From Myxococcota bacterium (GTDB lineage Bacteria; Myxococcota_A; SURF-8; G963663525): a DNA stretch of 64,000 bases. Position 1 is the first letter of the stretch; each line of letters starts with the position of its first letter. The stretch is from the NCBI GenBank assembly GCA_963676915.2, contig CAXXVK010000035.1, positions 1 to 64,000 of the forward strand, read 5' to 3'. The translations under genes were made by a program, and so were the position numbers. Positions 519-28,908 of the stretch are shown here, in pieces. The notes below the pieces were generated by a model, which saw only the letters and a list, made by a program, of their open reading frames with translations, did no database searches and had not been told where the DNA came from.

Positions 519-534
519 GAAGGGAAGGTTGAAG

Positions 535-3500
535 ATGTCGAAGTATATGAAATTTCAAAAAACAATCCTGTTGTTGGGCTTGTTGGTGGGGCTTTCGGTT
601 TTGTGGGGGTGCAGCCAATCGGAAAGCGCGTTGTCGGGTCCGCAGGCAGACAACGACGCTACCCCCTCCTCCGAAGAAGCCGACACCTCCGATGAAGTTC
701 TGGAAATGATCATTCGCGGCACGGGAACGACCGAAGGTAACCCAGCCATCGTTGTGATCGGTTTCGGCGAACGTCCCACAGACCCGAAAATCGAGCGTAG
801 TATGGAATGGAATCGCGTGGATTTGCGCATCAATGGAGCGTTTTTGGCGTCCAGCGATCAGTGCGATACCGAACACGGCTCGGTTCTGCAGAGCCATTCC
901 GGGGTGTTCGATTTTTCGCTGGTCGGAACGGAAAGCAAGCGAATCCGCATGTTTACCGAACCGACGCTCGAATATTGCTCGCTCGATTTCAGCCTGGACG
1001 ACAGTGACAACGCCGTGATCCTGGAAGGCGAGCATGACAACGGCACGATCCGCAGCCTCCATACCCACCTGAACGGTCAACTGCCGTTCGCCCCGGTCGG
1101 GGGACGTTTTGCGTGGGATGAATCCCAGCGGGAGCACTGGATTGTCGTGTTCGACCCCGACAAGCTGCCCGAAGACGACAGCAACGAGAACCTGGCGCTC
1201 GACGACAGCAGCAATCCCGTGCAATTGCAGCGCTGGCGGGAAGCGTTCGTCGGTGCGCTCGGTGTTTACCGGGATCTCGACGAAAACGGCCTGATCGACG
1301 AAAACGAGCTGACCGACGCCAACCTCGTCGCTCTGGGTGATCCCACACGTTTAAGCGCTACCTGGTCCGGTGGGGATCTGACTCCGATTCCCAGCGATGA
1401 CACGGGCGTTTTCGTGGCGGCTTCCCCGATCGGCAACGACGACGCACCCGGCACGATGCAACAGCCGGTAGCGACGATCGGTCGCGCTGTGGAACTGGCT
1501 AGCATCTCTAAATCCATCTTCGTGGCAGGGGGAGAATATCCAGAAGCCGTGACGACCATGACTTCTATGTATGGCGGCTACGAGGCCGACACCTGGACTC
1601 GCAACACCGGTGCGCATCCTTCCGTGATCGCCGCCCAGCTAGTCGATGAGGCCGATGTCGGCCTGATGGTAGGTGACATCACCTCGGCGAGTATCACAAT
1701 CAACAACACGGTATCGGATCGTCGTATCACGATCCAGGGATTTACGGTCATCGCGCCCGTTGGAGCGGAAGATATCGAAGAATCCATCGGTATCGCCGTG
1801 CTCAATAACACCTGGACGGTACTGGCCGACAACCTTGTCTATACCGATTCCAGCCTGACGTATAACAGCGTTACCGGTATCCGAGTCCTTCGTACCAGCG
1901 ACACCCGGCTGCTGAGCAACCGCATTTCGATGAGCCATGCCGCACAGGCCAAAGGTATTTCGTTGGACGAAAACGTTACGGCTCGACTGGAAGACAACCA
2001 AATGAGTCTCCAGAACAACACGAGCGAAACCGGACTCTATGCCACATCGCCCCGATTCATCTCGTTGCGGCGCAACCTCATCACCAGCTTTGGTCCGGCC
2101 GAAATGTCGAACCTTCTGCACTTCGGAGGCGGCTGCGAGTACGGTTGCCAGGTGGAAGCCGCCAACAACCTATTCCTTAATGAAGCGCTTTGCGGCAGTG
2201 CCTGCCCGATGGTCCGGGTGGAAAGCATTCCCTGCACGCTCGCCAACAACAGTTTTTGGGGATCGGGCAGCGCTGGAAGCCTGATCGTCGAATTCCAGGG
2301 CGAAGGCAACATGACGTTTGCCAACAACATCTTCCGCATCGCTCCCGCTACCTCGTCGGATACAGGAAGTCAGAGCGTATTCAAGACCGGTTCGATGGTG
2401 CAATTGACCGCCTACAACAACCTGTTCCATCTGCCGGATCAGACAGACGTAGCCTTCGTGCAGGGCACCTCTTCGACCACACTTGTGGATTCGGTTGCTG
2501 CGCTCAATGCCTGCTCCTGGAACGGCTGCACCTTTGCCGGAGGTAACCTGGCGGGCGATCCTCTCCTGGTCGATGTTTCCAGCGGAGATTTCCACCTTCA
2601 ACCTGCAAGTCCTTGCATCGATTCCGCGATGGACCCGCTACTTGTCGGGATACGCATCTGGAGCGACGCCGACGGCATCACGCGACCCCGTGGCGAAGGC
2701 TACGACATCGGCCCGTTCGAGTACGACGGCGACCCCAATCAGCACGAGTGCCCCGAGGTGGTCAACGAATGCCTGCGCCGTCCCACGATCTGCCGCGATA
2801 ACGCTATCTACCAATGCCAGGAACACTACGACGCTTTCAACTGCCTCGTTTCGACCGACTACGAGGATGCTTCGCCGGTCGATTGCGGGTCCGATCGCTG
2901 CTTCGACGAACCGCCTTCGGGGGTATCCGCCGAACTGATGGCGATCTGCCTGGAAGAATGCACGCCCTGCGATGTTTCCGGTGCGCTGCTGTGCCTCGAC
3001 AACGCTGCGGGCGGCTGCCGCCAGTGGAATTGCATCGACGGATGCCGGACCCTGACCCTCGACACCCCGGATGACACCATGCATTGCAGCCGTGAAAACA
3101 ATGCCATCTGCGTTTCCGACAATTCTTGCGGTCCGGTGCTTTCGGTGCAACCCGAGTCCATTGATTTCGGTTGCGTCCCAGAAGAGAATACCGTTCGCAA
3201 ACTCGTTACGATGTCCAACGTCGGCACGGCAGACATCACGATCCATTCGATCAACTTTGCTGACAGTTTCGGCGCCACAGGAGCACGTCTGGAGATTCAG
3301 GGTATTTCACTACCGCTGCTTCTTTCTCCAGCCGAAGCCAAAAACTTTTATGTTGTCGTAATTCCAGGAGAAAACCAAGAAGGATTGTACGAAAACATGG
3401 TACGGATTTTAAGCTCGGACTGTGAACGGCCGGTTCGTGATATTCAAGTAATACAAGACTGCCGGATCGACGCGCTTTGCACCGATCAGCCCGACGGTTC

Positions 3501-4806
3501 GGCTTGCGACGACGGCGATGTCTGCACGGTCAATGATGCCTGCTCGGCCGGGGTATGTGTCGGTGTGCCGCTCAATTGCGACGACGACAACCCCTGCACC
3601 GACGACGCCTGCAATGCCTCCGGCGGTTGTTTCCACACGAACAACAATGCGGCTTGCGACATTGGAAATCCCTGTGCCATGGGAGAATGTCGGAACGGCG
3701 ATTGCATGGAAACAGCCGATCCCGATTGCAACGATAACAACCCCTGCACCGACGACTATTGCTCTCAGGAAACGGGTTGCTATCATGAGATAGCACCCGA
3801 CGGGACAACCTGCACCTCGGAAAGAATCTGCCAGGACGGTGTATGTGAAGCGAGTTGCACCAACGACGAGGACTGCCAGGACGAGCACGCCTGTACCACG
3901 GATGTTTGCGATCTGGCCAGCGGATATTGCCGCCACTCGACCGATGCACTGTCCTGCGATGATTCCAACGTCTGCACCGAAGATTTCTGCGATCCGCTCG
4001 ACGGCTGCCTGCATCTCTACAGCGAAACGCTGTGTCCCGAAAACATCTGCCCCACAGTTTCCGCTCCTGAGCCTGAAGTACGGGAATGTACCGTAGGCGA
4101 TAGACTCGCTTTATACGGTCCAATCAGCACCGATCCAGATGGCACGATCGTGGAAGGCCATTGGGAAATCGTCGAACAACCGGAAGGTAGCCAAATAGAA
4201 ATGACACCTATGGATCCGGAATTCCATAACGTCCTCGTGACAACGGATGTTGAAGGAACGTACCGATTCGCCTACTCGGTTCGGGATAACGACAACTGCT
4301 GGTCCGAACCGGTGGAAGTGGTTCTGCTGGCGGTCGATGACAGCCCTTACCGTTTAATTCTCGATCTAGAGTACGATCAAGGAGAAAGCTCCGATCTATC
4401 CACCAATCTTGTGGATTTGGATCTGGGCGTAATATCCCCTGATGGCTATCGCTGCTCCGTGGATTTGATCAATAGTATAAACTCCTGCACGTTTCCCAAT
4501 GGTTGTGGTGCAATGTGGGCGTTTTCCCAATCGACGATAGATGGAAAAGTCATAAAACGATTCTTGGTAAACCAATACTGTGAAGGTGCTTGGAACTACA
4601 ATGTTGCTCTTTTAAACGACTGTGATGACTGGGTAGATATCTTTGTCACACCATTCTGTGCCCATCATACCGTTGTTGATTATACGTTGAGCCTGTATCA
4701 GGTCTCTCCGAGTCTGGAAGAACCGATACATGTCTTCGAAGGAACATTGGATGGACAGGGAGATATGGACAACAATGTTCTCACCCTTCCGCTTTCCGAA
4801 CCGTAA
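535..4806 (+). CDS. Large modular lipoprotein: parallel beta-helix (DUF1565/choice-of-anchor Q-like), Ig-like (choice-of-anchor D-like), Cys-rich repeats, PKD-like domain
   Basis: Lipobox LWGC after a hydrophobic signal; 'GNDDAPGT..QPVATI..AV', 'GDFHLQPASPCID', 'DIGPFEY'; repeated 'CDDxNPCTxDxC'; 'STDPDGTIV..HW'. ATG 535 chosen because of the upstream AGGAAGG RBS (ORF track starts at 502). Confidence 0.8.
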   Translation: MSKYMKFQKTILLLGLLVGLSVLWGCSQSESALSGPQADNDATPSSEEADTSDEVLEMIIRGTGTTEGNPAIVVIGFGERPTDPKIERSMEWNRVDLRINGAFLASSDQCDTEHGSVLQSHSGVFDFSLVGTESKRIRMFTEPTLEYCSLDFSLDDSDNAVILEGEHDNGTIRSLHTHLNGQLPFAPVGGRFAWDESQREHWIVVFDPDKLPEDDSNENLALDDSSNPVQLQRWREAFVGALGVYRDLDENGLIDENELTDANLVALGDPTRLSATWSGGDLTPIPSDDTGVFVAASPIGNDDAPGTMQQPVATIGRAVELASISKSIFVAGGEYPEAVTTMTSMYGGYEADTWTRNTGAHPSVIAAQLVDEADVGLMVGDITSASITINNTVSDRRITIQGFTVIAPVGAEDIEESIGIAVLNNTWTVLADNLVYTDSSLTYNSVTGIRVLRTSDTRLLSNRISMSHAAQAKGISLDENVTARLEDNQMSLQNNTSETGLYATSPRFISLRRNLITSFGPAEMSNLLHFGGGCEYGCQVEAANNLFLNEALCGSACPMVRVESIPCTLANNSFWGSGSAGSLIVEFQGEGNMTFANNIFRIAPATSSDTGSQSVFKTGSMVQLTAYNNLFHLPDQTDVAFVQGTSSTTLVDSVAALNACSWNGCTFAGGNLAGDPLLVDVSSGDFHLQPASPCIDSAMDPLLVGIRIWSDADGITRPRGEGYDIGPFEYDGDPNQHECPEVVNECLRRPTICRDNAIYQCQEHYDAFNCLVSTDYEDASPVDCGSDRCFDEPPSGVSAELMAICLEECTPCDVSGALLCLDNAAGGCRQWNCIDGCRTLTLDTPDDTMHCSRENNAICVSDNSCGPVLSVQPESIDFGCVPEENTVRKLVTMSNVGTADITIHSINFADSFGATGARLEIQGISLPLLLSPAEAKNFYVVVIPGENQEGLYENMVRILSSDCERPVRDIQVIQDCRIDALCTDQPDGSACDDGDVCTVNDACSAGVCVGVPLNCDDDNPCTDDACNASGGCFHTNNNAACDIGNPCAMGECRNGDCMETADPDCNDNNPCTDDYCSQETGCYHEIAPDGTTCTSERICQDGVCEASCTNDEDCQDEHACTTDVCDLASGYCRHSTDALSCDDSNVCTEDFCDPLDGCLHLYSETLCPENICPTVSAPEPEVRECTVGDRLALYGPISTDPDGTIVEGHWEIVEQPEGSQIEMTPMDPEFHNVLVTTDVEGTYRFAYSVRDNDNCWSEPVEVVLLAVDDSPYRLILDLEYDQGESSDLSTNLVDLDLGVISPDGYRCSVDLINSINSCTFPNGCGAMWAFSQSTIDGKVIKRFLVNQYCEGAWNYNVALLNDCDDWVDIFVTPFCAHHTVVDYTLSLYQVSPSLEEPIHVFEGTLDGQGDMDNNVLTLPLSEP

Positions 4807-10920: not shown

Positions 10921-13900
10921 TTACAGTCCGTTAAAGTCGGAATTCGATCCCAGGGTGCGAATCACCGTTCCGGCCTGGAGGTCGATGAAGATGATTTCGT
11001 GGTTGTCCGTCGAGGCGACCACATAGGCTCCCGTAATGGGATCGATGGCCATACCTTGCGGGTTGTTAAGCATGTAGAAATCTTCGTTCACCATGTCGCC
11101 GATCGAGTCAAGGCTGGCGGGATTGTCCGTATCTCTCGGGTACAGCACCGCTTTCGAGGGGTCTTGGTGCGGACCGTAAAGAATGTAATGTTTGGATTCG
11201 TCCACCATGTTGATCTTGTTCGCCTGGCTGGCCAGATCCAAGGTCGCTTTGTCGATCTTGCTGATGTACCCTGACTGGTCGGGTACGGTGTTCGTGTTAC
11301 GGAACGGCCATTTTTTGCCTTTCCCACTGTAGTGCAGCATCAGAAGGTTGCCGTCGGCGTCGAACATCATGTAGGTCACGTAAAGCGTTACGCCGTACTT
11401 GCCGATTTCTTCGGGTAAACCGTAAGCTCCGTCCACCATTTTCATCCGGTACAAGCGACTGTTGTTGGCGATGTACAGCCACTTACGGGAGTCGATTGCA
11501 ATGGCATCCATCGCTTTGGTCGTATCCCAGATGATTTCGCCATCGGGGTAGTTCGGATCTTCGTAGACGTTGCCGTTGGCATCCACCGGGAAGCGGCGCA
11601 CGTCCTTCTTGTTGTTTTCTACAACGTACATCCACTCGAAATCGGGATCGAAGCAGAAAGCCGGCGCTTTGGAAAGCCCTCGTTCATTGTCCATGTTACC
11701 GACCGAGAACCGAACCGTACCATCGATATCACCGTTGTGATTGTCCGGCTGGCTGGAACTGGATAACTGACCATATTCGTCCGGGACGATCTTCCACACA
11801 CCGTCATCGTTGTTGATGTGATCGTCGGTAGTGTAAATCGCTCCGTTGGGACCGACCGAAATGGCACCGACGCGGTAATCTTTCCATTTGGGATCCTGAC
11901 GCGACATGTCGACGAGGTACACCTGGCCGGTGGGATGCATCTGTGGATCGACCGACATCACGGTGCCGTACTTGACGCTTTCGTGGGTCACACGGCCACC
12001 CAGGTACATCGTGCCATCGGGACCGAAGGCCACGGACGTGGGATACTCGACGCCTTCGTAATGGACCGGCAGGGTTTCGCCGTTCGGGTCGCAGGATTCG
12101 CCATAACCGTCATGGTCCGGGTCGTATTGATCGACGTTGGAATCGAAGGGGCAATTGTCCGAAAGGTTCGGAATACCGTCGCCGTCCAGATCGAGGTCCA
12201 CGCAATCGGCGATGCCGTCGCTGTCGGTGTCGTCGAAGTCTTCGTCCACACTTCCGTCATTATCGTTGTCGATACCGTCGCAAATCTCTTCTTCCACCAT
12301 CTCCCAGGGACTTGCGCAACGGAAACCGACGGCAGCGTCTTCCAGAATCGGTGGTAGAGCCTTACGATAGCTTACACGAGTCTGTCGTGGATCGCTGGAG
12401 TATCCACCGCCGCGAACCACCTTGTAGCTGCAATTTTCCACGCAGGCCGGGTCGCCGTCACAAAGCTCGATGCAATCCTCTTTCGTGGTGTACTTCGGAT
12501 TGACAAAAGGATCGGAAGATGTCGAAGGCTGATACTCATAGAGCCAGTCCGCCACCCATTCGCCGACGTTTCCGGCCATATCGTACAGGCAATGACCGCC
12601 GAAGCAATGAGTACCGTCTTGGGCCGGATTATCACCATTGAAGCTTCCCACGTCCATCGGAGCATCCAGATTGCTTTCGTTGCTGGCGCAACGGTTGGCG
12701 TCCCAGGTCGCTCCCCAGGGCCAGAGGTCATCATCCAGACCGCGTGCGGCAAACTCCCATTCCGCTTCCGTGGGCAAACGAAGTCCCAGCGTATTGCAGT
12801 AGTCGAACGCCGCTTCCCATGGCAGACCGGATACCGGCTTCAGATTGCCACCCGGAGAGTGGTAAGCCGTTTCTTCGGACGGAACGAGGTGACAACCCGT
12901 GACACAAATCCCCGCTTCCGTACAATGATACTGGTCGGGACAATTAGCCTGAAGGTCGTCAAGAGTGAATTCGCACTCTACATCGGATTCCAGATAACGG
13001 TCCATACAAGCCTTGTATTCCAGCACGGTCACTTCACGCTGCATCATGATGAACGGTTCGAGTTCCACCCAATGCTTCGGCACCTCATCCAAATACGGTT
13101 GCTCGTCGGTGTTGTAGGAGGGATCTTCGTCAAGTCCCATCGGAGCGACGGACCAGGGAAGCGGCACATAGCCGGGTTCGACCTCCTGGCTTTCCACCGT
13201 GATCATGAAATGGCGGGTATCGGACCATAGTCCAGCCCCGTTGACCGCACGAACGTGCATGTAATACGTGCCCGCCAGCGGAGCGCTCTGATCATCGATG
13301 TGTGCGGACGTCGTATCAACCACTGTGTCGGGCACGGTACCAGCTTGATCGTCGAACACGAACGAATATCCCGCGATGCCGGAAACGTCGCTGGCGACGA
13401 AATCGAAGACAGGATCGTAGCTGTCATAGGATTGCTCCGGCGACGGGTGGGTTGAGGAGGTAACTTCCGGCAGTTCCGGCGGTGTTGTATCGATGCGGAA
13501 TTCGTAGGTTGTGGATTCACCCCAGTTATCCGAATCGTCCTTGGCTTTGACGTGGAAATACCAGATGCCATCGTCCAGATCGTTGAAATCGATCGACCCG
13601 GAATCGTCCTCTGTGACGCCTGTGGGGCCATTGGAGCACACTGGCAGCGAGGCATCCACAGTATCGGCACCGGCCTGGGTGGTGGCACTGAAGGATGTTT
13701 GCGCCCCCAAGGCTCCGGCAATGGCGTCGCCAAGGATGAAGTCGTCGAAGTCCGCACCGGATACCTGCAAAGTGCCACGCACGAGACCACGTTGATCCAT
13801 CAGCATGTAAGCGGCGAGAATATCTGAACTAATCGGGTTTGTGGCAATGATATTGTTGATGTAGAACTCGAAGGTTGCCGCCTGTCCGTCGGTCACCAGC

Positions 13901-15963
13901 ACGTTGTTGATGAATTCCACGTCGGCGATCAAGACATCGGTGTATCCGTTCACACAGTCTCTCAGCTTGATTTTAAATCCACGCTCGATCGTGCGGTCCA
14001 CGAGGTAATAACGATTGGAATATACACGATCTTTGTCGATCACGAGGGTGGGGAAAATCACCTGTGCGCGAGGCGCCCAGTCGCCGCAATCGTTCCCGTA
14101 GCCGCTGTAATCGTTGAGTTCATCCGTGGACGGATCGGTGTTGACGATCTGGCTCGGGGAGATCAACTCCAGCGTCTCGTAAAAACCGTCTTCGGGATAG
14201 CCCGAACCCGTGGGACCGTCGAACAGGTTGGCCGTTCCCATGAATGCCATGCCCTGACTGTCCAACTCGACGTAACATTTGCAGGTTTCCATTTCGGCGT
14301 TGTGATTGAAATCGAAGCCGACGGGAGCGAACGTGAATACATCCTCGAAGAACAGCGGCTCGTCGAAGCTCATCGGGCTGATACGCACGAGGTTTCCGTT
14401 GTCCGTTCCGGCGTAGAGGTAACCATCCGGGTGCCAGCCCATGGAACTGAGCCCCGTGTATTCCAGCAAGGTGTCGATGGGTTCTTCGTATCCGGAATAC
14501 ATATCCACGGTCGTGATTTCGCTCATGACGCCTGAATCGACCAGATAGGTGATGTACAGCAGACCGGTCGGAGCATACGAGCAGGTCATGATGTTGTCCG
14601 GCAGGTTGTCCGCAACCTGTTCGAAACCATTGGAGTACCGCCACACCTTGTCGCCGGAAACCATCATCAGCAGTCCGTTGTGGGTCGCTCCCATGCAAAG
14701 GACGTTATCTGCCGTACCGTCACCTTCGAAGTCGATGTAGTTGCCATCCAAGATCACTTCTTCGACCGGAATGTTGGTGCCGACTTTGTTTTCGAGGTCG
14801 ATACGGATCAGGTGATCGCGTCCCAGAGTATCCCGCGCCATGGCGAGGAACTCGGACACTTGATTTTTCTCGTTGTCCTCATACTCGCGCACGATGAGAT
14901 CGTGGGTGTAGGTCGGTACGAACGAGGTGGAGGAAAAGTCCAGCGTACCCAAAGGCAATGCACTGGCGCTGGGGGCGTAAAGATCGAGGAAAAACAGCGT
15001 CTTATCGTCTCTCAAAGCGTAGCCGCGATAAGTGTAGGCGTCCTTTCCGGAACCGAAACAGGCACAATAGCCTTCCTCGAACGGCTCTCGGCAGGGAGTA
15101 TCGACATTGTCTTCGGTGCCGTAATCCATTTCGTTGTCCGGTTCCGTGTCGGAAACGTGGTCCAGCACGTAGCTGAAGCCGTCGATTCCGAACACGCCGC
15201 TGGGAGCCGAAACCGGGTCGGTGGCTTCGAAGTCTATGGTGACATCATTCGCCACAGCCCAGGCTTGACTGTCGGGATGGGTGGGGGAATCCACTTTCGG
15301 GGCGTCGGGTTCCACCTCGTCGATGTACCGGACATAGTAGTCATCCTGCGTAACCTCGGGATACATCACGTAGCCACTACCGGGCGAGTAATGCACCGAC
15401 CGCTCGACGTTCCAGTCCAGGATCAGAATATTGAGCAGGGCATTGTCGATTTCGGGGATGTCGATCTCGATTTTGATGCTGTTGTTGCCCACAGTCGGCA
15501 GAATGTGCATGTCATGCTCGATACCGTCGACGGTAACGGTGGCGGTAGGATCCAGCACAAGACGGATCTTCGAGTACAAAGCCGCCGGGATCTGCGCCAC
15601 ACCAATGGTCGCCATCACACCGTAGCGAAGATCAAGCAAATTCAGCAACTTAGGTCCGCCATCGAAATTGAGACTCAACCAGCCGGTATCGGCCAGCACC
15701 TGGACATCTTCGATCGTCACGGTACAGGCTTCGATACCTCGGAGAGGATGGTCTCTGAGCATGACCTTCAACGTCGGCGCATCCGAGGGAAGATCCAATG
15801 TTTTCGGGTTGATCACCGGGAGGTTGTCCTCGGAAACCAGCGGTTGTTCCGAAACAGGTGAATCGGAAACCGAACAACCCGTTAGAGTCGAAAAGGCCGA
15901 AACAAGTACAATAAGAAGGAAAAGTCCGACACGTTTCGAGGAGGAATGATTTGAAGTAATCAT
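10921..15963 (-). CDS. Giant modular lipoprotein: DUF4382-like, Ig-like repeats, beta-propeller, FGE-sulfatase (SUMF1-like), thrombospondin type-3 repeats, C-terminal NHL-like propeller
   Basis: Lipobox LTGC; 'LLNLLDL...YSKIRLVL...ILDWNVERSV'; 'RLPTEAEWEFAARG', 'DMAGNVGEW', 'RGG', 'GFRCA'; 'DGDGIPNLSDNCP...DQYDPDHDGYGESCD'. ATG 15963 has an AGGAGA RBS. Confidence 0.8.
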   Translation of the reverse strand: MITSNHSSSKRVGLFLLIVLVSAFSTLTGCSVSDSPVSEQPLVSEDNLPVINPKTLDLPSDAPTLKVMLRDHPLRGIEACTVTIEDVQVLADTGWLSLNFDGGPKLLNLLDLRYGVMATIGVAQIPAALYSKIRLVLDPTATVTVDGIEHDMHILPTVGNNSIKIEIDIPEIDNALLNILILDWNVERSVHYSPGSGYVMYPEVTQDDYYVRYIDEVEPDAPKVDSPTHPDSQAWAVANDVTIDFEATDPVSAPSGVFGIDGFSYVLDHVSDTEPDNEMDYGTEDNVDTPCREPFEEGYCACFGSGKDAYTYRGYALRDDKTLFFLDLYAPSASALPLGTLDFSSTSFVPTYTHDLIVREYEDNEKNQVSEFLAMARDTLGRDHLIRIDLENKVGTNIPVEEVILDGNYIDFEGDGTADNVLCMGATHNGLLMMVSGDKVWRYSNGFEQVADNLPDNIMTCSYAPTGLLYITYLVDSGVMSEITTVDMYSGYEEPIDTLLEYTGLSSMGWHPDGYLYAGTDNGNLVRISPMSFDEPLFFEDVFTFAPVGFDFNHNAEMETCKCYVELDSQGMAFMGTANLFDGPTGSGYPEDGFYETLELISPSQIVNTDPSTDELNDYSGYGNDCGDWAPRAQVIFPTLVIDKDRVYSNRYYLVDRTIERGFKIKLRDCVNGYTDVLIADVEFINNVLVTDGQAATFEFYINNIIATNPISSDILAAYMLMDQRGLVRGTLQVSGADFDDFILGDAIAGALGAQTSFSATTQAGADTVDASLPVCSNGPTGVTEDDSGSIDFNDLDDGIWYFHVKAKDDSDNWGESTTYEFRIDTTPPELPEVTSSTHPSPEQSYDSYDPVFDFVASDVSGIAGYSFVFDDQAGTVPDTVVDTTSAHIDDQSAPLAGTYYMHVRAVNGAGLWSDTRHFMITVESQEVEPGYVPLPWSVAPMGLDEDPSYNTDEQPYLDEVPKHWVELEPFIMMQREVTVLEYKACMDRYLESDVECEFTLDDLQANCPDQYHCTEAGICVTGCHLVPSEETAYHSPGGNLKPVSGLPWEAAFDYCNTLGLRLPTEAEWEFAARGLDDDLWPWGATWDANRCASNESNLDAPMDVGSFNGDNPAQDGTHCFGGHCLYDMAGNVGEWVADWLYEYQPSTSSDPFVNPKYTTKEDCIELCDGDPACVENCSYKVVRGGGYSSDPRQTRVSYRKALPPILEDAAVGFRCASPWEMVEEEICDGIDNDNDGSVDEDFDDTDSDGIADCVDLDLDGDGIPNLSDNCPFDSNVDQYDPDHDGYGESCDPNGETLPVHYEGVEYPTSVAFGPDGTMYLGGRVTHESVKYGTVMSVDPQMHPTGQVYLVDMSRQDPKWKDYRVGAISVGPNGAIYTTDDHINNDDGVWKIVPDEYGQLSSSSQPDNHNGDIDGTVRFSVGNMDNERGLSKAPAFCFDPDFEWMYVVENNKKDVRRFPVDANGNVYEDPNYPDGEIIWDTTKAMDAIAIDSRKWLYIANNSRLYRMKMVDGAYGLPEEIGKYGVTLYVTYMMFDADGNLLMLHYSGKGKKWPFRNTNTVPDQSGYISKIDKATLDLASQANKINMVDESKHYILYGPHQDPSKAVLYPRDTDNPASLDSIGDMVNEDFYMLNNPQGMAIDPITGAYVVASTDNHEIIFIDLQAGTVIRTLGSNSDFNGL

Positions 15964-16364
15964 GGGATTCTCCTTTGTCCTTGCACATTTTTTCATGCTG
16001 TGAAGAATTATTTGCATAGTTGCTCTTCTATGTCAATTTTATTTACAAAAAGCTTGAAATTCCTTAATCCATAACAATACGTCCCATAATACAGGTGTTT
16101 TATAGAAGATTGGTTTCTCCGCACCATGGAAACGACTTGTTTTTTCGAGAGCATCATCCGAAAATCCTTTTAAGGAACCGTACCGCTTAAATAATAGTCG
16201 CAATTTTCACGCCAACCCCTTCTCAAACCACGGAAATCGTACTTTCACGAACATTCGATAGAGCGGAGGTTGATGAGGCGACTTCTAGACTTGTGTAATT
16301 TTTTCGAACACACTCAAAGTCGTGCAACGTAAAGGATCGTGTAAGCCCCCCGCTCGCCATGGAT

Positions 16365-18659
16365 TCACCCTTTCAGTTTTCCAAGGTTGACCCAACCGTT
16401 GTGATACAGAACGTGCTTGCATTTCGTGGTGTCCACCTTCGTTCCCGGTACACGAAGAGACACAAGCCGGAACAGAAGCGCTTGTTTGTCGTCTTTTCCA
16501 GGATCAAGCTCCAGGTTGGGTTGCAGCTCCGCCGGATGAACCACGATATTTTCGGTGCCGATGTCGATGGAAGCTCCCATGCGACCGTATTGGGTGGCCA
16601 TTTCCCGCAAGCGATCCGTATCGCGAACGGAAAGTCCCCGGATTTTTTCGAAGATCGTCGGCTGCCCCGAAAACAGCGCGCTTGTAAATAAAAGCGGCAA
16701 AAGGGAAGGAATTTCAGCGGCATCCACGTGGTGAGGCTGCAGGATGTCCATTTCCTCGATCCACTTTCGGATTCGACGACAGCGCGGACCGAGATTTTCG
16801 TCCACATTCAACAGGTTGATTTCCTTGCCCAACAACCAGCCGGTATAAATCAGCATGGCGGCAATGGAATCGTCGAAACCGACTTTGTATTCCCCGCTAT
16901 GGTAGCGCCCATGAGGAACGACAAGGGTTTGCCGGTCGGGACGATCCACCGGAACGCCGAAGGTTTCCATCACTTTGAGTGTGGATTCGATGTAAGGCGA
17001 GTAGGCCGAGCCGCCCAGCAGATGAAGGGTCAGGCCGTCTTTCAGAATCGGAGCCATCAATACCAGACCGGCGGCGAGGTTGTCGTTGTCGCTGGTATCG
17101 ATTCCCGTGGATTTCGGTGGGTTATTGTCCACGATGAAGTGAATTTTCTCGTTTTGTTCGCCGCTGCGGGAAATCCTCACACCGAGCGCTTCGAGCGTCA
17201 TCAGCAACCCGGCCAATGGACGATGCACCAGCGAAGGACCGAGATGAAGCTGCATTCCCCCCTTGACCACCAGCGAAAGAGACGCCAGTTGACGCAGGAC
17301 CGACCCGCCGTGCTCGATTTCGATTTCCTCTGAAGATTCAAGCACATCGGGTGGAATCAGACGCCAGGCAAAACCTTCGGATTCGACCTGAACCCCGAGC
17401 TCCCGCAAAGCAACACGTAACTCTGCCGTTTGCAATGAATCCAGTGGGCCGTTGATCAACGACGGTCCGTCGGCCATTGCGGCACAGGTGATCATGTCGA
17501 GGGTTTCGCCACGGGAAGGAGCCACCATCAGTTCGATGGCTTTTCCTAAATGTCGTACACCGGAATGCGCCGGGCGGGGGGCAATGTGCTCCCAGGCTTT
17601 CAGCACGTCCGATTCGCGGACGATTTCGGGCTGGCAATCTTCGTGCATCAACCCAATTCCATTTGGTAAACAAAGCCTTATCCGATTGTCTACCCATTGG
17701 CGGTCTGCCTCGATAGCGCGGCTCAGTAACTCACCAGGTACCGGCTCCCAGCATTCCGGAAGCTGGAAATTTCCCATAACAGCCCGAATTCTCTCAAAAG
17801 ATTTCAAATCGAGAATGTTTTTTTCCACCGCGATACGGCATTCGACGAGAATCCCCAAGGCGACCGCCTCGGCGCGGGTAATCGTGTAATTGAGAGCACG
17901 CTGCAAAATTCGAGAGGTCGGCAGACCGATTTGCAGGGCGGCGTGATTTTCCCCCAGCTTTTCGGTCGCCACAAAGCGCGCTTTGACCGCAAGACTGTAA
18001 TAAATCAGCTTTTTCAGGTCGGGTTGATTGCGTGCGGACTGGTTCGTCAATCGCTCCAGACGTTCGAACAACAAAGCGTCGCCGACGATGGCATGCCGGA
18101 TGATTTCGGCCCAGCCGTTGGCCCATTCGTCGTCGGGAAGATTTTCGAGAAGTTTTGTATCAACCCAGGAGCCGAACGGCGGATGAAACGCTCCCAACAG
18201 GTTGCGACCGGCCGGGGCATGAATCCCCGTTTTACCGCCGACGGCCATTTCCGCCTGAGCCAGCAACGTTGTAGGAATCTTGATATGGGGAATGCCGTGA
18301 AGGTAGGAAGCCGCCACATAGCCCGCCAGATCCAGTGTCACGCCGCCACCCAGAGCCAGAATCAGGGAATCTTCACCCAGTCCCAACTCGAACATGCGGT
18401 CTTCGATCAGCGCCTTGGCATCCCGCGATTTGCTGGCTTCTCCCGAGGGAAACGAGATTTTATGCACGTTTTTCCCGCTTTCGGCGGCCAGATTCGCGAT
18501 CAGGTCGCCGAACTGCTCCATCACCGGTTCATCGGAAACCACGACACAATGGGAAATCGTTTCTGGAATGAACATTGGAAGGGTTTGAAGCACACCTTCC
18601 CCAAGGATCAGGAAAGAGAGCTGATTGTCTCCATAATCGACATCGATTCGCTTGGTCAT
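16365..18659 (-). CDS. Fusion of 3-dehydroquinate synthase-like and EPSP synthase-like domains, both apparently catalytically degenerate
   Basis: N-terminal half has 'GEASKS', 'ALGGGVTLDLAG', 'PTTLLAQ..AVGGKTG', 'NLLGAF'. C-terminal half has 'RPLAGL', 'SPYIESTLKVMETFGV', 'DTDRL'. The ORF is uninterrupted. Confidence 0.85.
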   Translation of the reverse strand: MTKRIDVDYGDNQLSFLILGEGVLQTLPMFIPETISHCVVVSDEPVMEQFGDLIANLAAESGKNVHKISFPSGEASKSRDAKALIEDRMFELGLGEDSLILALGGGVTLDLAGYVAASYLHGIPHIKIPTTLLAQAEMAVGGKTGIHAPAGRNLLGAFHPPFGSWVDTKLLENLPDDEWANGWAEIIRHAIVGDALLFERLERLTNQSARNQPDLKKLIYYSLAVKARFVATEKLGENHAALQIGLPTSRILQRALNYTITRAEAVALGILVECRIAVEKNILDLKSFERIRAVMGNFQLPECWEPVPGELLSRAIEADRQWVDNRIRLCLPNGIGLMHEDCQPEIVRESDVLKAWEHIAPRPAHSGVRHLGKAIELMVAPSRGETLDMITCAAMADGPSLINGPLDSLQTAELRVALRELGVQVESEGFAWRLIPPDVLESSEEIEIEHGGSVLRQLASLSLVVKGGMQLHLGPSLVHRPLAGLLMTLEALGVRISRSGEQNEKIHFIVDNNPPKSTGIDTSDNDNLAAGLVLMAPILKDGLTLHLLGGSAYSPYIESTLKVMETFGVPVDRPDRQTLVVPHGRYHSGEYKVGFDDSIAAMLIYTGWLLGKEINLLNVDENLGPRCRRIRKWIEEMDILQPHHVDAAEIPSLLPLLFTSALFSGQPTIFEKIRGLSVRDTDRLREMATQYGRMGASIDIGTENIVVHPAELQPNLELDPGKDDKQALLFRLVSLRVPGTKVDTTKCKHVLYHNGWVNLGKLKG

Positions 18660-18682: not shown

Positions 18683-20215
18683 TTAATCGATCCAACCCCG
18701 ATTTCTACGCAACAGCGCCAGTACAGGCAAGAAGAGCCACCACCAGACGGCGTTCGAAACACCGCTGCGGCAGGAAGAATTCGTTCCCAGGTAGGTCACC
18801 GAATTCCCGGCGATTTCATCCGAATCCCCGGAGGAAACGGGAATATCCCAGTCGGCGGCGGGAATCGTTTCGTCTTCGTCTGCCGGATTCGGACCATTTT
18901 CCTGCTCGGAAACAACGTCTTCTTCCGTCGTCGTATCGACCGTTTCCGTCACATCGTCGTCCGTATCGCCATCGACCACGGCCTCGTCGGCGTCACCCTG
19001 GGACGGATCGATGCAAAACGCTGTAACTTCAACAGTTTGCGATCCGTCAGCGGTCTGTATCGTGACTTCCCCGTGATGCTCGCCCGGTTGCATACCCAGC
19101 GCGTAAATGGAAATCAACAGTTGTGCCGTTTCTCTGGCATCGATCCGTCCGATTTCCTCCCCTTCGTGGCCATTGAGACGAATCCAGGTTTCCGAAGGCA
19201 TAGCCGTCCATTGCAGCGGATTGCTGCCGGTGTTCGTGATTTCCACCTTCACGGGGATCGAATCGTCCCCGGAGTGCACGTCGATCGCCACCTGTTCCTG
19301 GTCCAGTTCGAAACTCGACGCGGGCGGAGAAGGCAACGTACTGGAATCCAGTTGGAAGTAGTTGACGTACGTAGCGAAACAGGAGGTGTTGCGTACGATT
19401 TCGAAATATCCGCCGTCGCCCCAGTCGTCGCCCCAGGAGTTTTTCGCAATCCACGAGTTGTGGCTGTCGTCCCAGCCAACCAGCGCTACAATGTGACCTT
19501 GACTGCTGGATAAGTCACTGAAATAACAACCGGTATCGCTGGGTTCGTACACGCCGTCCCCACTGAAATCGCTGCGAACCACCATGTTCGCCACCACCGG
19601 TCCCTGCATGATACGAGTTTTGATATCCGGTTCGGTCGTGGAAGGATCGGTGACACCGGGAATGGTGATGATCCGCCCCTGGGAGGTGATTTTCACTACC
19701 CGGTCCTGCCAGTCGGAACATAAATTGGCGCAGTTCCCTTCTTGGGCGGTGTAGGGATAGCAGCTTTCGTCCGGTACGCCATCGGCTTCCATGGCGGCCA
19801 ACACTTCGTCCGGCATCCCCCCCGATTCACACGAGGTGCTGCTTCGTCCGCAGGACACCATGTATTGCTCGCAGAGGTCGAGATCGTAATCCGGGTCGTT
19901 GAGGTAGATATTGGCGTGAGCTTCCGCCGCTGCAAGCGGTCCATGCGCCCAGCAGGAACCGCAGTTGCCCTGGTCTCGAACCGGCGTCATCCAGTTGACG
20001 CCATCCACATCGCGCCAGTCCCAGCGAGAGGGAAAATCACGCGGGCGGTTGGGGAGAGGATTCGAATCGCCCTCGGGCATCGAAAGAAGTTCGGGACCGG
20101 GATAAAAAGGTACAAGGGTCCGGCCTTGAAATTCCGCAGCGGAAACCGAGGAAACGCCAACGAATAAAAACGCGCAACTCATGAGAAAAACTGAAAAAAT
20201 AGATAGTTTCGACAT
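18683..20215 (-). CDS. Secreted papain-family (C1A) cysteine protease with BACON-like domain and C-terminal membrane anchor
   Basis: Signal peptide; 'WDWR', catalytic 'QGNCGSCW', 'GHIVALVGW', 'KNSWG..WGDGGYF'; acidic linker; tail 'SSC...WWWLFLPVLALLRR'. Confidence 0.9.
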   Translation of the reverse strand: MSKLSIFSVFLMSCAFLFVGVSSVSAAEFQGRTLVPFYPGPELLSMPEGDSNPLPNRPRDFPSRWDWRDVDGVNWMTPVRDQGNCGSCWAHGPLAAAEAHANIYLNDPDYDLDLCEQYMVSCGRSSTSCESGGMPDEVLAAMEADGVPDESCYPYTAQEGNCANLCSDWQDRVVKITSQGRIITIPGVTDPSTTEPDIKTRIMQGPVVANMVVRSDFSGDGVYEPSDTGCYFSDLSSSQGHIVALVGWDDSHNSWIAKNSWGDDWGDGGYFEIVRNTSCFATYVNYFQLDSSTLPSPPASSFELDQEQVAIDVHSGDDSIPVKVEITNTGSNPLQWTAMPSETWIRLNGHEGEEIGRIDARETAQLLISIYALGMQPGEHHGEVTIQTADGSQTVEVTAFCIDPSQGDADEAVVDGDTDDDVTETVDTTTEEDVVSEQENGPNPADEDETIPAADWDIPVSSGDSDEIAGNSVTYLGTNSSCRSGVSNAVWWWLFLPVLALLRRNRGWID

Positions 20216-20521
20216 CGATAAATCCTTGAAACGCAAAATAGACAAACCACTGTAACGCCTAAGATATCTATCATAGCTGATTTCGCGAACTTTGGCTAGA
20301 GCGGATTGCATAGGATCGGAAGGATAAGTTTATGTTTTTCGCAGGATTATGCAGTGTAAACAAATTGGATATTCGAAAAAACGATATCTTCGTTAAAAAC
20401 GTCGATTCAAACCGTTGCTTTTCACTGTAGAGCCAGGATGGAAAATCTACCACCAGAACACCATTCGAAGTCGAAATCAGGACCAACGAACGAACAAATC
20501 TCTGCTATATGCGCAAGATAC

Positions 20522-25344: not shown

Positions 25345-28300
25345 CTACAGCGTAATCCCCGCTTCTTGCTTGAATCGTTCCACCAAATAGACGGGATTCT
25401 GTTTCCAGAAATCGAGATCGAACGGATAGATGACAACATCGTTGTAATCGTTCGTTATCAGATAGCGGCCATCCGAAGTTTGGGTTCGGGCAATGGTTTC
25501 GTAAGAAAACAGCAGTTGCTGAACGACTTTGCCCGTGTCTATTTCCCAAATCCGTACCGTGTGGTCGTCGCTGGTAGACAGAAGATGCTTTCCATCTTTG
25601 AGGAACAACAGCCTCGGCACCCATTCCGCATGACCTTTTAAAGTCCGAATCAGCTTGCCGGAACCCGTCTCCCAGATTTTCACCGTTTTGTCCCTGCTAC
25701 CCGAGACCAGCAAACGGCTATCCGGAGAAAATTCCACCGTGGTTACCCAATCCGTATGTCCTTTGTAGGTCTTAAGAAGTTGCCAGGTGCTGGTGTCCCA
25801 TAGCTTGATGGTCTTGTCATTGCTCGCCGTCGCCAGTAGTTTGCCATCGTTGGAAAAAGCCACATACCAGACTTGTTCACTGTGACCCTGCAAGGTCGTC
25901 ACCAACGACAGATCATCCGCATGGAGAATCTTCACCTCTTTTTCGCAACAGGAAGCTACCAACTGCGAATCGGGTGAAAACGTGGTCCACCAAACGATCC
26001 TCTGTTTTTCATGAACTTGTTTAGTAAGCACTCGCTTGTATCCGTCTTTGACATCCCAAAGCCCGACTTCTCCAACGCCGTTGCCGGTAACAAGCCACTT
26101 TCCATCGTCGGAATGTTTCATGGAGACCAAAAACACGTCGTCTTTCTCGCATTTTTTTATCCATGTCTTGGTCTTGAAATCCCAAAGATTCATGAATTGT
26201 TCCATACCGATCGACAAGAGATATTTTTCATTCGGAGACAAATCAACGGAGTACACGTACTTTTCATGGCCGCTTAGACGTGTGACTTTGGGTGGCAACA
26301 CCTTCCAGAGCTTGACGGTTTTATCCCAACTTGCCGAAGCGATCAGTGAATCGTCCGGAGAAAAAACGGCCATTGGAATGTAATGTTCGTGTGCGGTGAT
26401 TTTCGTAATAAGCTTTCTTTTTTCAAAATCCCACATGCGGATCGTATGGTCGTCGGCGGACGTGATCAGACTCTTTCCATCCGACGAAAAACGTGCACCC
26501 CAAATCGGATCTTCATGATCATCAAAAGATTCCTCCAGTTGCATGGAATCAAGGTTCCATATGTTGACCACTTTATCCGAGCCTACGGAAACCAAGTGTT
26601 CGTCGTTGGGAGCGAAGGTAATTTCGTGAACTTGATCCTTGTGACCTTTCAGACTGTGAATCAGCTTGTGATCCCTCATGCGGTAGAAACGGATTTCCCT
26701 ATCCGAGCCTCCCGTTGCCAACCATTGGGAATCGTTCGAAAAAGCGATGGTTCCGACGCGACCGCGATTGTCAGTGTGACGTTTGAAGATTTTCATACTC
26801 GACAAATCCCAGATGGTCACGAGGCCATCCGATCGTCCGGTGGCCAGCCATTTCCCGTCCGGTGAATACGCCACATCGAAAACTTGAGAAGAATTGTTTC
26901 GCAACACATGCAATTCTTTGCCGTCGGGGAGGCTCCATATTCTGACGGTCTGGTCGTCACTGCACGAAGCTATGTTTTTTCCATCCGGTGAAATGTCCAA
27001 ACGCCAGATTTTCGCCGTATGCCCGGATAGTGTTTTGTAAAGCTTTCGCTCGCGAACGTTCCAAATTCGAATTGTTGAATCCGTTCCCGCCGATACCAGC
27101 CATAAGCCATCCGGTGAAAATTCGACGTCGTTGACATCGGCCTGGTGGCCTATAAACGTTGTGTCATGCACGACGGAGGTGTTGGCATCGGCTTGAAAAA
27201 CAAGAGAACTGGCCGAAACACGCGACTCAGCGGCTTCAACGGTATCCGTAATATCCGGGGTAAATGCAAACGGGCTGTAAGGATTGTAGGGATTGTTCAA
27301 GAGCGCTTCGGCAGCAAAGACACGAGCCTGAAGATAGTCTTTTTCAACGTAAAAGTTCTTGGCTTTTTCAACCAATGATTTCGATAGGTGATAGTGGACT
27401 TGCCGCTCGTTGTTTTCCGCTTCTTCGCGGGCGGCTACCGCTTCTTGCCTGGACATTTCCGCCGTGCGGTAGGCATCGAAGATAACGCCCGCACCGACAA
27501 TCAGAAACAGAAGAAGGAAAATGGCGGAAGCCGTGAGAGATTTGTTTTTCGCAATGAAGCGTTTGAGCAATTCCCACGACGTGTATTCGTAGGCCTCGAT
27601 TTTCGAACCCGACATGTAGGCTTGTACTTCGTTGGCGATCTCTCTGGCTTCGCTGTAGCGCTCCGACTTGTTGCGACACAAAGCTTTTTCCGCAACGGCG
27701 GCCAGATCGGGAGGCGCTTCGGGACAAAGCTCGCGCACGGGTTTGATCGGCTGCTCTTTGACTTTGCGCACGATCTCCATCGGGTTGTTGCCCTCGAAGG
27801 GCGTACGACCCGTAAGGATCTGGTACAACACCACGCCCAGGCACCAAATGTCGGAGCGTTCGTCGATCTGGTCGATTTGTCCCATTGCCTGTTCAGGACT
27901 CATGTAGGAAGGCGTCCCAATGGCTGCGCCCACGATAGTTCTACCCGCCATGGCATCCAGCAGCGATTTCGTTTCCTGTTCGAAGGTGCTGTCGGCATAC
28001 TCGGGCTGGCCGTGAACTTTCGCCAATCCCCAGTCCAAAACGACCGTTTCACCGAACTCGCCGAGCATCACATTGGCGGGTTTGATGTCTCGGTGAATGA
28101 CTTTTTTGGAATGTGCGTAGGCAATCGCCTGGCATAAATCCTCGAAGTGGGTAAGAAGTTCCAGCCGGTCGTGGATGTCTTTGCATTCGCGAAGAGCTTG
28201 CGCCAACGTCTTGCCGCGAACGAGTTTCATGGAATAGTAAAACGTTCCGTCGTCGCGACGCCCGATTTCGTACACCGGCATAATGGAGGGATGCTCCAGG

Positions 28301-28908
28301 CTGCCGGTGATTCTCGCTTCCCTCAGAAAACGGGAAACACGAATATTATCGACTTTCTCGGTCTCTGATTCCTGATCGTTTTTCTCTGAAGCTTTAGCTT
28401 TTTTCTTAGGGATCAGCTCTTTGATCGCTACGTTGCGCTCCAGATGGATGTCGAAAACCGACAACACCCGGCCCAATCCTCCTCGCCCGATTTCAGAGGC
28501 ATAAGCGGACCCGCTGGTGAATTTATAGCGCCCTGGTGTTTCGGGAGTGGCCAGCAGGGATTCTTTCTGAGCTTGCAGAAATGAATCTTCTTTCTTTTTG
28601 ATTTTCCCCTCGTAAGAATTTTCCAAAATCAAAGTCGCCGAAGGGCCGAACGTATCGTTGACGATCTGGTCGCCTCCCATGCTCGAAAGCACCATATCCG
28701 CATCGCCGTCATGCAGGATCAACGTTTTTTCGGTAAAAATATCGATATGCTGGCGGGTCTCTTCATCGATGGTTCCGGCATACAACAAGGAGTCGGACAA
28801 CGTTTCCTTGCGGTCGGGATTTTCCATACAGCGAGCCACTACATCCGCTTCGGCGAGACCGAGACGAACCGTAATGACTCCAGTCAATAAATCCTTGGCA
28901 TTGCGCAT
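25345..28908 (-). CDS. Ser/Thr protein kinase with a TM segment and C-terminal WD40 repeats
   Basis: 'IGRGGLGRV', 'VAIKE', 'HRDIKPANV', 'DWGLAK', 'GTPSYMSPEQ'; many GH...WD repeats. Confidence 0.95.
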   Translation of the reverse strand: MRNAKDLLTGVITVRLGLAEADVVARCMENPDRKETLSDSLLYAGTIDEETRQHIDIFTEKTLILHDGDADMVLSSMGGDQIVNDTFGPSATLILENSYEGKIKKKEDSFLQAQKESLLATPETPGRYKFTSGSAYASEIGRGGLGRVLSVFDIHLERNVAIKELIPKKKAKASEKNDQESETEKVDNIRVSRFLREARITGSLEHPSIMPVYEIGRRDDGTFYYSMKLVRGKTLAQALRECKDIHDRLELLTHFEDLCQAIAYAHSKKVIHRDIKPANVMLGEFGETVVLDWGLAKVHGQPEYADSTFEQETKSLLDAMAGRTIVGAAIGTPSYMSPEQAMGQIDQIDERSDIWCLGVVLYQILTGRTPFEGNNPMEIVRKVKEQPIKPVRELCPEAPPDLAAVAEKALCRNKSERYSEAREIANEVQAYMSGSKIEAYEYTSWELLKRFIAKNKSLTASAIFLLLFLIVGAGVIFDAYRTAEMSRQEAVAAREEAENNERQVHYHLSKSLVEKAKNFYVEKDYLQARVFAAEALLNNPYNPYSPFAFTPDITDTVEAAESRVSASSLVFQADANTSVVHDTTFIGHQADVNDVEFSPDGLWLVSAGTDSTIRIWNVRERKLYKTLSGHTAKIWRLDISPDGKNIASCSDDQTVRIWSLPDGKELHVLRNNSSQVFDVAYSPDGKWLATGRSDGLVTIWDLSSMKIFKRHTDNRGRVGTIAFSNDSQWLATGGSDREIRFYRMRDHKLIHSLKGHKDQVHEITFAPNDEHLVSVGSDKVVNIWNLDSMQLEESFDDHEDPIWGARFSSDGKSLITSADDHTIRMWDFEKRKLITKITAHEHYIPMAVFSPDDSLIASASWDKTVKLWKVLPPKVTRLSGHEKYVYSVDLSPNEKYLLSIGMEQFMNLWDFKTKTWIKKCEKDDVFLVSMKHSDDGKWLVTGNGVGEVGLWDVKDGYKRVLTKQVHEKQRIVWWTTFSPDSQLVASCCEKEVKILHADDLSLVTTLQGHSEQVWYVAFSNDGKLLATASNDKTIKLWDTSTWQLLKTYKGHTDWVTTVEFSPDSRLLVSGSRDKTVKIWETGSGKLIRTLKGHAEWVPRLLFLKDGKHLLSTSDDHTVRIWEIDTGKVVQQLLFSYETIARTQTSDGRYLITNDYNDVVIYPFDLDFWKQNPVYLVERFKQEAGITL

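Follow-up and report, generated by a model that had tools for sequence, protein, structure and literature searches.

The window analysed here, a stretch of 64,000 nucleotides (nt) of a Myxococcota bacterium genome (GenBank assembly GCA_963676915.2, contig CAXXVK010000035.1, positions 1 to 64,000), harbors a gene that joins a 3-dehydroquinate synthase (DHQS)-like domain to an EPSPS-like domain (EPSPS, 5-enolpyruvylshikimate-3-phosphate synthase), with replacements in both halves at many positions conserved in the two families. An initial annotation of the window had noticed an uninterrupted open reading frame (ORF) of about 765 amino acids (aa) without stating its strand; the gene lies on the minus strand (Table 1), its frame is indeed intact over 764 aa, and its stop codon occupies 16365-16367. 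The longest open frame begins further upstream at TTG 18695 and encodes 776 aa; residues are numbered throughout from this TTG (protein P0001), which makes the ATG at 18659 Met13. As judged from the sequence, this ATG is most likely the true start, because the recorded protein of the ortholog in a same-genus genome opens with the identical MTKR, because that genome carries 5 inserted nt in the interval from the TTG to the ATG, and because the ATG sits 23 nt past the stop (TAA) of the upstream gene. Below, G000 designates the genome of the window and G001 the same-genus genome, whose copy of the fusion is P0005; another sequence, P0004, is a close relative of the window fusion (96% identity) from another assembly.

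Profile comparison matched both families, as the initial annotation had expected, and both equivalog cut-offs were missed. Pfam recognized DHQ_synthase (PF01761) at residues 80-192 (6e-32), DHQS_C (PF24621) at residues 194-332 (2.8e-15) and EPSP_synthase (PF00275) at residues 392-764 (1e-34). Against the NCBIfam models, the DHQS half reached 223 bits for aroB (TIGR01357; 225.6 in the genome search), below the equivalog cut-off of 305, and the EPSPS half 130-133 bits (132.9) for aroA (TIGR01356), below the cut-off of 287.25. An AlphaFold2 model computed from an alignment of 70 sequences has high confidence in both domains, with a mean predicted local distance difference test (pLDDT) score of 89.8, and its top Foldseek matches were the AROM structures 6hqv and 7u5s across both domains and bacterial DHQS for the N-terminal half, including a template modelling (TM) score of 0.92 to the Vibrio DHQS 3okf. 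It is thus certain that the protein contains the DHQS and EPSP synthase folds. The likeness to the N-terminus of fungal AROM that had been put forward is limited to domain order, DHQS then EPSPS, intact bacterial AroB-AroA fusions being closer. The protein does not belong to the AROM type, as Pfam found two domains only and the shikimate kinase, dehydroquinase and shikimate dehydrogenase domains are absent.

Motif changes were checked in phmmer alignments to solved structures and in MAFFT alignments. For the DHQS half, P0001, P0004 and P0005 were aligned with 67 references (56 single-domain DHQS, 10 two-domain proteins and P0056), mostly taken from the 150 best matches in a scan of representative proteins, with long AROM-type proteins and a few others excluded for length; a column was counted when at least 90% conserved in the references. 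The DHQS half departs from the family at 16 of 48 near-invariant columns, compared with 0-4 (median 1) in the references. The divalent metal ligands of DHQS are reportedly one Glu and two His, according to structure papers on Aspergillus nidulans; Glu197 is kept in the fusion, both histidines are replaced (H258L and H274R) and the adjacent His262 is an Arg (H262R), which leaves the set of ligands incomplete. Among the substrate-type positions, Lys155, Asn165 and Lys238 are retained, and R133H, K164R, K200R, R251H, N255Q, K332R and K333Q are replacements. The remaining departures are D149E, D245E, T259P, A263I, E265Q and G275A. Retained in this half are the GGGVTLD, PTTLL and GGKT motifs, with G85, E86, K89, G116-G118, D122, P141, T142, G153-K155, N165, E197 and K238. 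At the level of sequence, the half therefore carries the NAD-type motif set (GGGxxxD loop, Glu/Lys pair, PTT and GGK), and these glycine-rich and other motifs are presumably those contacting NAD+ in DHQS structures. Both kinds of alignment confirmed the motif losses first read in this half, including both metal histidines, together with the conservation of its NAD scaffold.

The EPSPS half was compared with 32 references, made of 17 aroA frames from the same phylum, 11 C-terminal halves of fusions and 4 of 30 distant matches; 18 aroA regions had been taken, in each of which the ORF was selected by its phmmer match to the canonical aroA of the genome, and one region was left out for want of a matching frame. 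This half departs at 18 of 37 near-invariant columns (0-9 in the references), the departures including K395R, S396G, R400D, S538D, Q539N, S565Y, D664S, E692D, H736D, R737K and K762V. In Escherichia coli numbering, we take the catalytic and substrate-binding residues of EPSPS to be K22, R27, S169-Q171, D313, K340, E341, H385, R386 and K411. Equivalents of Lys22, Asp313, Glu341 and His385 are among the residues lost, and those of Arg124, Arg344 and Tyr200 are retained. The NxGT loop has His for Asn with its Gly retained, SSQ has become NDN, and the KE(T/S)DR motif shows K to R in addition to E692D. The replacements listed for this half in the initial annotation were found again, except that SSQ had been read as DND, one residue out of register, a difference that is immaterial; the degeneration of both active sites that it had claimed is borne out by the counts of changed conserved columns. 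Replacements scoring at least 0 in BLOSUM62 make up 13/16 and 11/18 of those at near-invariant columns of the DHQS and EPSPS halves, compared with 27/36 and 40/76 at moderately conserved columns, without clear difference. Conservative replacement was accordingly dropped as a mark of a remodelled site, its share being no higher than at moderately conserved columns.

Experimental changes at comparable positions are available for the Candida albicans Aro1 protein, for which the consulted portions of the study report that H268K/H280K renders DHQS activity undetectable and that D715A leaves 1.6% of EPSPS activity (PMC9074039). In the alignment to solved structures, His268 and His280 of Aro1 align with Arg262 and Arg274 of the fusion.

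The ratio of nonsynonymous to synonymous substitutions (dN/dS) was estimated by the Nei-Gojobori method between G000 and G001, whose ortholog shows 83% and 74% identity over its two pieces. It amounts to 0.096 for the whole gene at a dS of about 1.2, with separate values of 0.087 (DHQS half) and 0.104 (EPSPS half), and the same method gave 0.088 for a giant gene and 0.159 for a protease gene neighbouring the fusion, and 0.156 for the canonical aroA. Purifying selection is thus confirmed, and not the ratio near 1 by which the initial annotation would have recognized a decaying duplicate. The replaced columns are identical in both genomes at 13/16 positions in the DHQS half and at 16/18 in the EPSPS half. 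Because most of them are shared, the catalytic losses predate the split of the two lineages, and the measured selection therefore acts on the degenerate protein. The family-conserved columns that were retained differ between the two genomes at 1/32 (DHQS) and 0/19 (EPSPS) positions, compared with 54/353 and 75/408 for background columns, and these almost frozen positions include G85/E86/K89 and the GGG..D and GGK motifs. The loop at residues 259-262 differs at all four positions, PTSR in G000 and AAAH in G001, a divergence in sequence that argues against an exact catalytic role there. As estimated from these two genomes, the fusion is retained under purifying selection after the loss of its catalytic residues.

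The degenerate form is narrowly distributed, since it was found in two of 401 sampled genomes of the phylum, G000 and G001. Among 1.84 billion representative proteins only P0005 exceeds 32% identity to the fusion, and a word-based search with the C-terminal half alone returned only P0004 and P0005 above 26% identity. Pattern scans of metagenome and genome contigs confirmed no further relative, and the contigs of three sequencing runs contained one full-length sequence identical to the fusion, perhaps from the source sample itself, and small identical fragments, without variants. The runs listed as carrying the sequence included no RNA run. Intact two-domain AroB-AroA proteins are not rare in bacteria, the nearest being P0063 (755 aa, 32% identity). 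P0063 itself carries a tandemly repeated insert in its DHQS domain at about residues 195-250, with units like GEQAKSPIDKKL, and its C-terminus stops short of the last EPSPS motifs.

Quick IQ-TREE searches, with moderate support, were used to place the two halves. The N-terminal half stands beside a clade of aroB genes of the same order and P0063 (Shimodaira-Hasegawa-like approximate likelihood ratio test, SH-aLRT, 87), on a stem of 1.46 substitutions per site with tips of 0.07-0.09. The C-terminal half groups with the aroB-adjacent aroA of G008, with P0063 and with the aroA of G002 (SH-aLRT 92), on a stem of 3.72 with tips of 0.003-0.03. The canonical aroA of G000 falls in another EPSPS clade, with those of G001, G004 and G003, and aroA directly follows aroB in G008 and G006. 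From these trees, we infer that the fusion would descend from the order's own aroB and its adjoining aroA, either through a local fusion or by inheritance of a catalytically intact fusion such as P0063. This native pair or fusion would have become redundant, diverged sharply on the stem of the genus and then been held nearly constant, and a second shikimate set (the aroD-E-K-A-C cluster, and the DAHP synthase-aroB pair in the sister genome) would carry the pathway.

The remaining shikimate genes of G000 are located elsewhere. Whole-genome family searches covered aroC, shikimate kinase, both types of DAHP synthase (I and II) and of dehydroquinase (I and II), and aroE, and none of them returned a match on the contig of the fusion (C35), so that the early remark that no other shikimate genes lie nearby holds for the whole contig. 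A row of aroD, aroE, aroK, aroA (347.3 bits) and aroC is found on contig C6 of G000 (111644-116029), where aroE and aroK share one open frame of 450 aa and may be fused. Just upstream of aroD lies a C-terminal remnant of 94 residues of a second type of aroB (C6:111644-111919; 44% identity to the aroB of G004). The same row exists in G001 with a different aroB fragment, carrying a TAG (C4:492702-492869). In addition, G001 harbors a canonical aroB (318.7 bits) adjoining a PF00793 DAHP synthase (C1:385398-387223), in a block (C1:383934-387502) that also holds a 454-aa gene and for which the G000 assembly shows no ortholog.

No canonical aroB was found in the G000 assembly, in which the fusion is the only aroB-like gene besides the remnant, and family searches found neither DAHP synthase II nor type II dehydroquinase in G000 or G001. 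The single PF00793 match of G000 is 29% identical to the aroB-linked DAHP synthase of G001 and corresponds to a different G001 locus. In its assembled state, G000 therefore lacks steps one and two of the pathway and keeps the last five. However, these absences may reflect an assembly gap, because the G000 assembly (5.18 Mb) is 90.8% complete, is divided into 74 contigs and is 1.9 Mb smaller than that of G001. The search for canonical paralogs suggested by the initial annotation was thus successful in G000 for aroA, and for aroB in G001 but not in G000; an active paralog of the DHQS half is shown in G001 only, because G000 has just the remnant. Elsewhere in the order, G007 (one contig, about 93% complete) gave no match to either half of the fusion with this query and may lack aroB and aroA altogether, and G005 gave a weak aroA-like match only. 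The order thus seems variable in its set of shikimate genes.

The fusion is preceded by a gene for a papain-family cysteine protease, with which it is likely co-transcribed, and followed by a gene for a giant protein that starts 347 nt past it and is predicted to be secreted or lipoprotein-like (Table 1). The protease has an N-terminal hydrophobic segment, an acidic low-complexity region and a C-terminal hydrophobic stretch ending in RRNRG that resembles a sorting signal; a MYXO-CTERM tail was considered and dropped, as no NCBIfam model matched. Orthologs of the giant protein occur at 36-37% identity in three genomes of the order. The block of three genes is syntenic in G001, and orthologs of the protease and of the giant protein are found across the order at unlinked places, including in G007. 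Further flanking genes are typA and a hydrolase of the metallo-beta-lactamase (MBL) fold, and no neighbour of the fusion recurs beside the aroB/aroA loci examined in four related genomes. A scan for promoters and terminators gave counts no higher than in shuffled sequence, with one promoter-like site matching 11 of 12 positions before the giant gene. The gene context offers no functional clue to the fusion and lends no support to the candidate roles named in the initial annotation (sensor, scaffold or regulatory subunit). Elsewhere in the window, positions 25345-28908 (minus strand) encode a protein of 1187 aa in which a Ser/Thr protein kinase domain precedes numerous WD40 repeats, and positions 502-4806 (plus strand) a protein of 1434 aa that comprises Dictyostelium CTDC repeats, DUF1565 and an Ig-like domain.

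Table 1. Features of the fusion gene and of its two neighbours (positions in the window; residues counted from TTG 18695)
Feature	Positions	Strand	Remarks
DHQS-like/EPSPS-like fusion CDS	16365..18659	minus	764 aa from ATG 18659; intact single ORF
DHQS-like domain	17634..18605	minus	residues 31-354; NAD-type motifs kept, metal and substrate residues replaced
Former metal/acid-base loop	17910..17924	minus	residues 258-262, LPTSR for H-T-x-G-H of the family; LAAAH in the same-genus ortholog
Arg274	17874..17876	minus	at the second metal-binding histidine; RAE for HGE of the family
Inter-domain linker	17544..17570	minus	residues 376-384; sole segment of the model with pLDDT below 50
EPSPS-like domain, degenerate active site	16416..17531	minus	residues 389-760; from Pfam, TIGR01356 and alignments to E. 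coli and Vibrio EPSPS
Papain-family (C1) cysteine protease gene	18683..20311	minus	upstream of the fusion; stop 23 nt before the fusion ATG
Giant protein gene	10921-16017	minus	1698 aa; DUF4382, FGE-sulfatase, thrombospondin type 3 repeat and SGL-like regions

Several known systems resemble the fusion in part. Intact, uncharacterised bacterial AroB-AroA fusions (among them P0063, P0092, P0107, P0125, P0136, P0172 and P0056; 727-822 aa) have the same domains in the same order, but they present the GHxxGH, HG, (S/P)SKS...R, SSQ, KE(S/C)DR and DHR motifs where the window fusion is degenerate, with the limit that P0063 ends before the DHR region and that the N-terminal motif of P0092 falls outside the aligned slice. 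These intact fusions depart at 0-4 of the 48 DHQS columns and 0-7 of the 37 EPSPS columns, compared with 16 and 18 in the window fusion. P0063 is the nearest relative outside the genus, and each of its two halves falls close to same-order genes in the trees. Fungal AROM/Aro1 (6hqv, 7u5s) shares the N-terminal DHQS-EPSPS order and is the best match over both domains in sequence and in Foldseek; however, the DHQS and EPSPS domains of AROM are active, whereas both are degenerate in the window fusion, which lacks the other AROM domains, and in the trees its two halves fall with bacterial genes of the same order and do not point to fungi as a source. Sugar phosphate cyclases related to DHQS (2-deoxy-scyllo-inosose synthase, 2-epi-5-epi-valiolone synthase and the AroB-related family TIGR04425) have the same fold and NAD-type motifs but are weaker matches, the fusion scoring best to aroB itself. 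These enzymes reportedly keep the metal ligands, and those among the aligned solved structures are deposited with Co2+ or Zn2+ and NAD, whereas the window fusion is devoid of two of the three ligands.

Two described cases of inactive domains come closest in concept. C. albicans Aro1 carries a naturally inactive dehydroquinase (DHQase) domain that is compensated by a separate enzyme, as stated in the part of that article consulted (PMC9074039). In the TrpC-TrpF fusion of Leucomyxa plasmidifera, a catalytic residue is replaced in each half, and the authors speak, in the portion available, of a pseudoenzyme of undefined function (PMC11528492). This protein shares with the window fusion the joining of two enzymes of aromatic amino acid biosynthesis and the alteration of both halves; it differs, as far as that portion goes, by the enzyme pair, by its occurrence in a eukaryote devoid of the rest of the pathway and by an argument based on a single residue per domain (PMC11528492). 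Searches of the full-text literature, assessed from titles, opening lines of abstracts and the articles consulted, found no description of a degenerate DHQS-EPSPS protein; supplementary lists of multi-domain EPSPS proteins in PMC9394408 may already include bacterial DHQS-EPSPS fusions. The fusion itself is well documented at the level of sequence.

Considering these elements together, the label of double pseudoenzyme is supported by the sequence data, and we give a probability of roughly 55% to the reading that the fusion would be a double pseudoenzyme for shikimate chemistry, maintained by selection and acting without catalysis, with an N-terminal domain that binds NAD(H). The latter domain would still bind NAD(H) through its retained Rossmann-type motifs, the former metal site would be filled by Arg and Leu side chains, and the whole protein would serve as a ligand-binding, regulatory or scaffolding protein. 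The retained columns being almost frozen and the replaced ones changing at the background rate, the protein would therefore combine a preserved nucleotide-binding core with an inexact former catalytic centre.

Several observations weigh against this reading. First, the replaced pocket columns are no more variable than the background (3/16 compared with 15% in the DHQS half; 2/18 compared with 18% in the EPSPS half), which leaves room for a remodelled functional pocket. Second, basic residues of the EPSPS pocket are kept, as the equivalents of Arg124 and Arg344, or conservatively replaced (K to R, R to K), and an anionic ligand might still bind the EPSPS-like pocket. Third, since no catalytic aroB was found in the G000 assembly, a supply of DHQS activity by the fusion would be compatible with the gene content taken alone. 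Fourth, only three sequences of the degenerate form are known, those of G000 and G001 and P0004. Finally, the G001 copy is split by a deletion of 1 nt (GGG to GG) at the position of window nucleotide 17106, and its recorded protein has 518 aa. The initial annotation had seen in frequent disruption among orthologs a sign of decay: this single deletion affects the only other genome with the fusion, and P0004 is intact across the site. Because the 245 codons past the deletion, read in the G000 frame, contain no stop and show a dN/dS of 0.107, the deletion either arose very recently or reflects an error of the assembly.

The main rival to a non-catalytic protein is a remodelled enzyme, in which one or both pockets would run a different reaction, for instance an NAD-dependent reaction of the DHQS-like domain that needs no metal and acts on some other sugar, phosphorylated or carboxylated, with an EPSPS-like domain that binds or transfers another group. 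Metal-independent members are known in the related iron-alcohol-dehydrogenase fold, such as the maleylacetate reductases. Purifying selection as strong as on real enzymes, the fixation of most replaced pocket residues in both species (13/16 and 16/18), the many replacements that keep charge or polarity (D to E, K to R, N to Q, R to K) and the retained NAD-type motifs all favour such neofunctionalisation. On the contrary, the share of conservative replacements is no greater than at ordinary columns (13/16 compared with 27/36, and 11/18 compared with 40/76), the central loop 259-262 is entirely different between the two species, the degenerate form occurs in a single genus, and no biosynthetic gene was seen among its neighbours, which are the secreted protease, the giant and likewise secreted protein, typA and the MBL-fold hydrolase. 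We consider this explanation possible but doubtful. A more specific form is rather unlikely, namely a new two-step enzyme with metal-free NAD(H) chemistry, in which Arg274 and Arg262 would replace Zn2+ and the catalytic His and a remodelled, still partly cationic EPSPS-like cleft would take a phosphorylated substrate other than that of the shikimate pathway.

The fusion could also be a redundant duplicate that recently became dispensable and is beginning to decay, with a real frameshift in G001 and a G000 copy that is not yet broken. The split G001 gene and its shortened recorded protein agree with this scenario, as does the flux of shikimate genes in the order, with aroB remnants in G000 and G001 and no match to this query in G007. 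However, the dN/dS of 0.096 over a dS of about 1.2, and of 0.107 in the stop-free codons past the deletion, speaks against it. Moreover, the catalytic losses are older than the species split and the frame is still open, P0004 comes from another assembly and is intact at the site, and an error of a single base in a homopolymer would be plausible in the 4-contig assembly of G001. Decay is in our opinion improbable. As for a working DHQS and/or EPSPS with unusual residues that would fill the missing DHQS step of the assembly, which could be proposed from its being the sole aroB-like match in a 5.18-Mb, 90.8%-complete assembly that keeps aroD, aroE, aroK, aroA and aroC, has no detected DAHP synthase II and shows a lone PF00793 match only 29% identical to the aroB-linked enzyme of G001, it is hardly credible given that the fusion has lost two of three metal ligands along with most substrate-binding residues, that His-to-Lys changes at two of these positions abolished the DHQS activity of Aro1 in the portion of the study consulted (PMC9074039), that G001 holds the same degenerate protein beside a canonical aroB (318.7 bits) adjoining a DAHP synthase, that G000 already has a canonical aroA, and that its missing genes may simply be unassembled in 74 contigs totalling 1.9 Mb less than G001.

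Most of the known pseudoenzymes that stem from core metabolic enzymes are single domains. The scope of the present case is narrow, with one genus, three sequences and a genomic context devoid of functional clue. Within this scope, read as a double pseudoenzyme, the window fusion would provide a clean example, in a bacterium, of two fused enzymes that jointly lost their chemistry and have since been maintained by selection as strong as on working genes. Domain content would also lead to naming the gene "bifunctional 3-dehydroquinate synthase/EPSP synthase", and such a misannotation would wrongly complete the shikimate pathway in metabolic reconstructions, the more so as the fusion is the sole aroB-like gene, besides the remnant, in the G000 assembly. 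As the same order still holds the intact ancestor type, in the form of separate aroB and aroA genes and of intact fusions, it offers a well-controlled comparison set, which lets one ask why a dead enzyme fold persists and whether NAD binding outlives catalysis.

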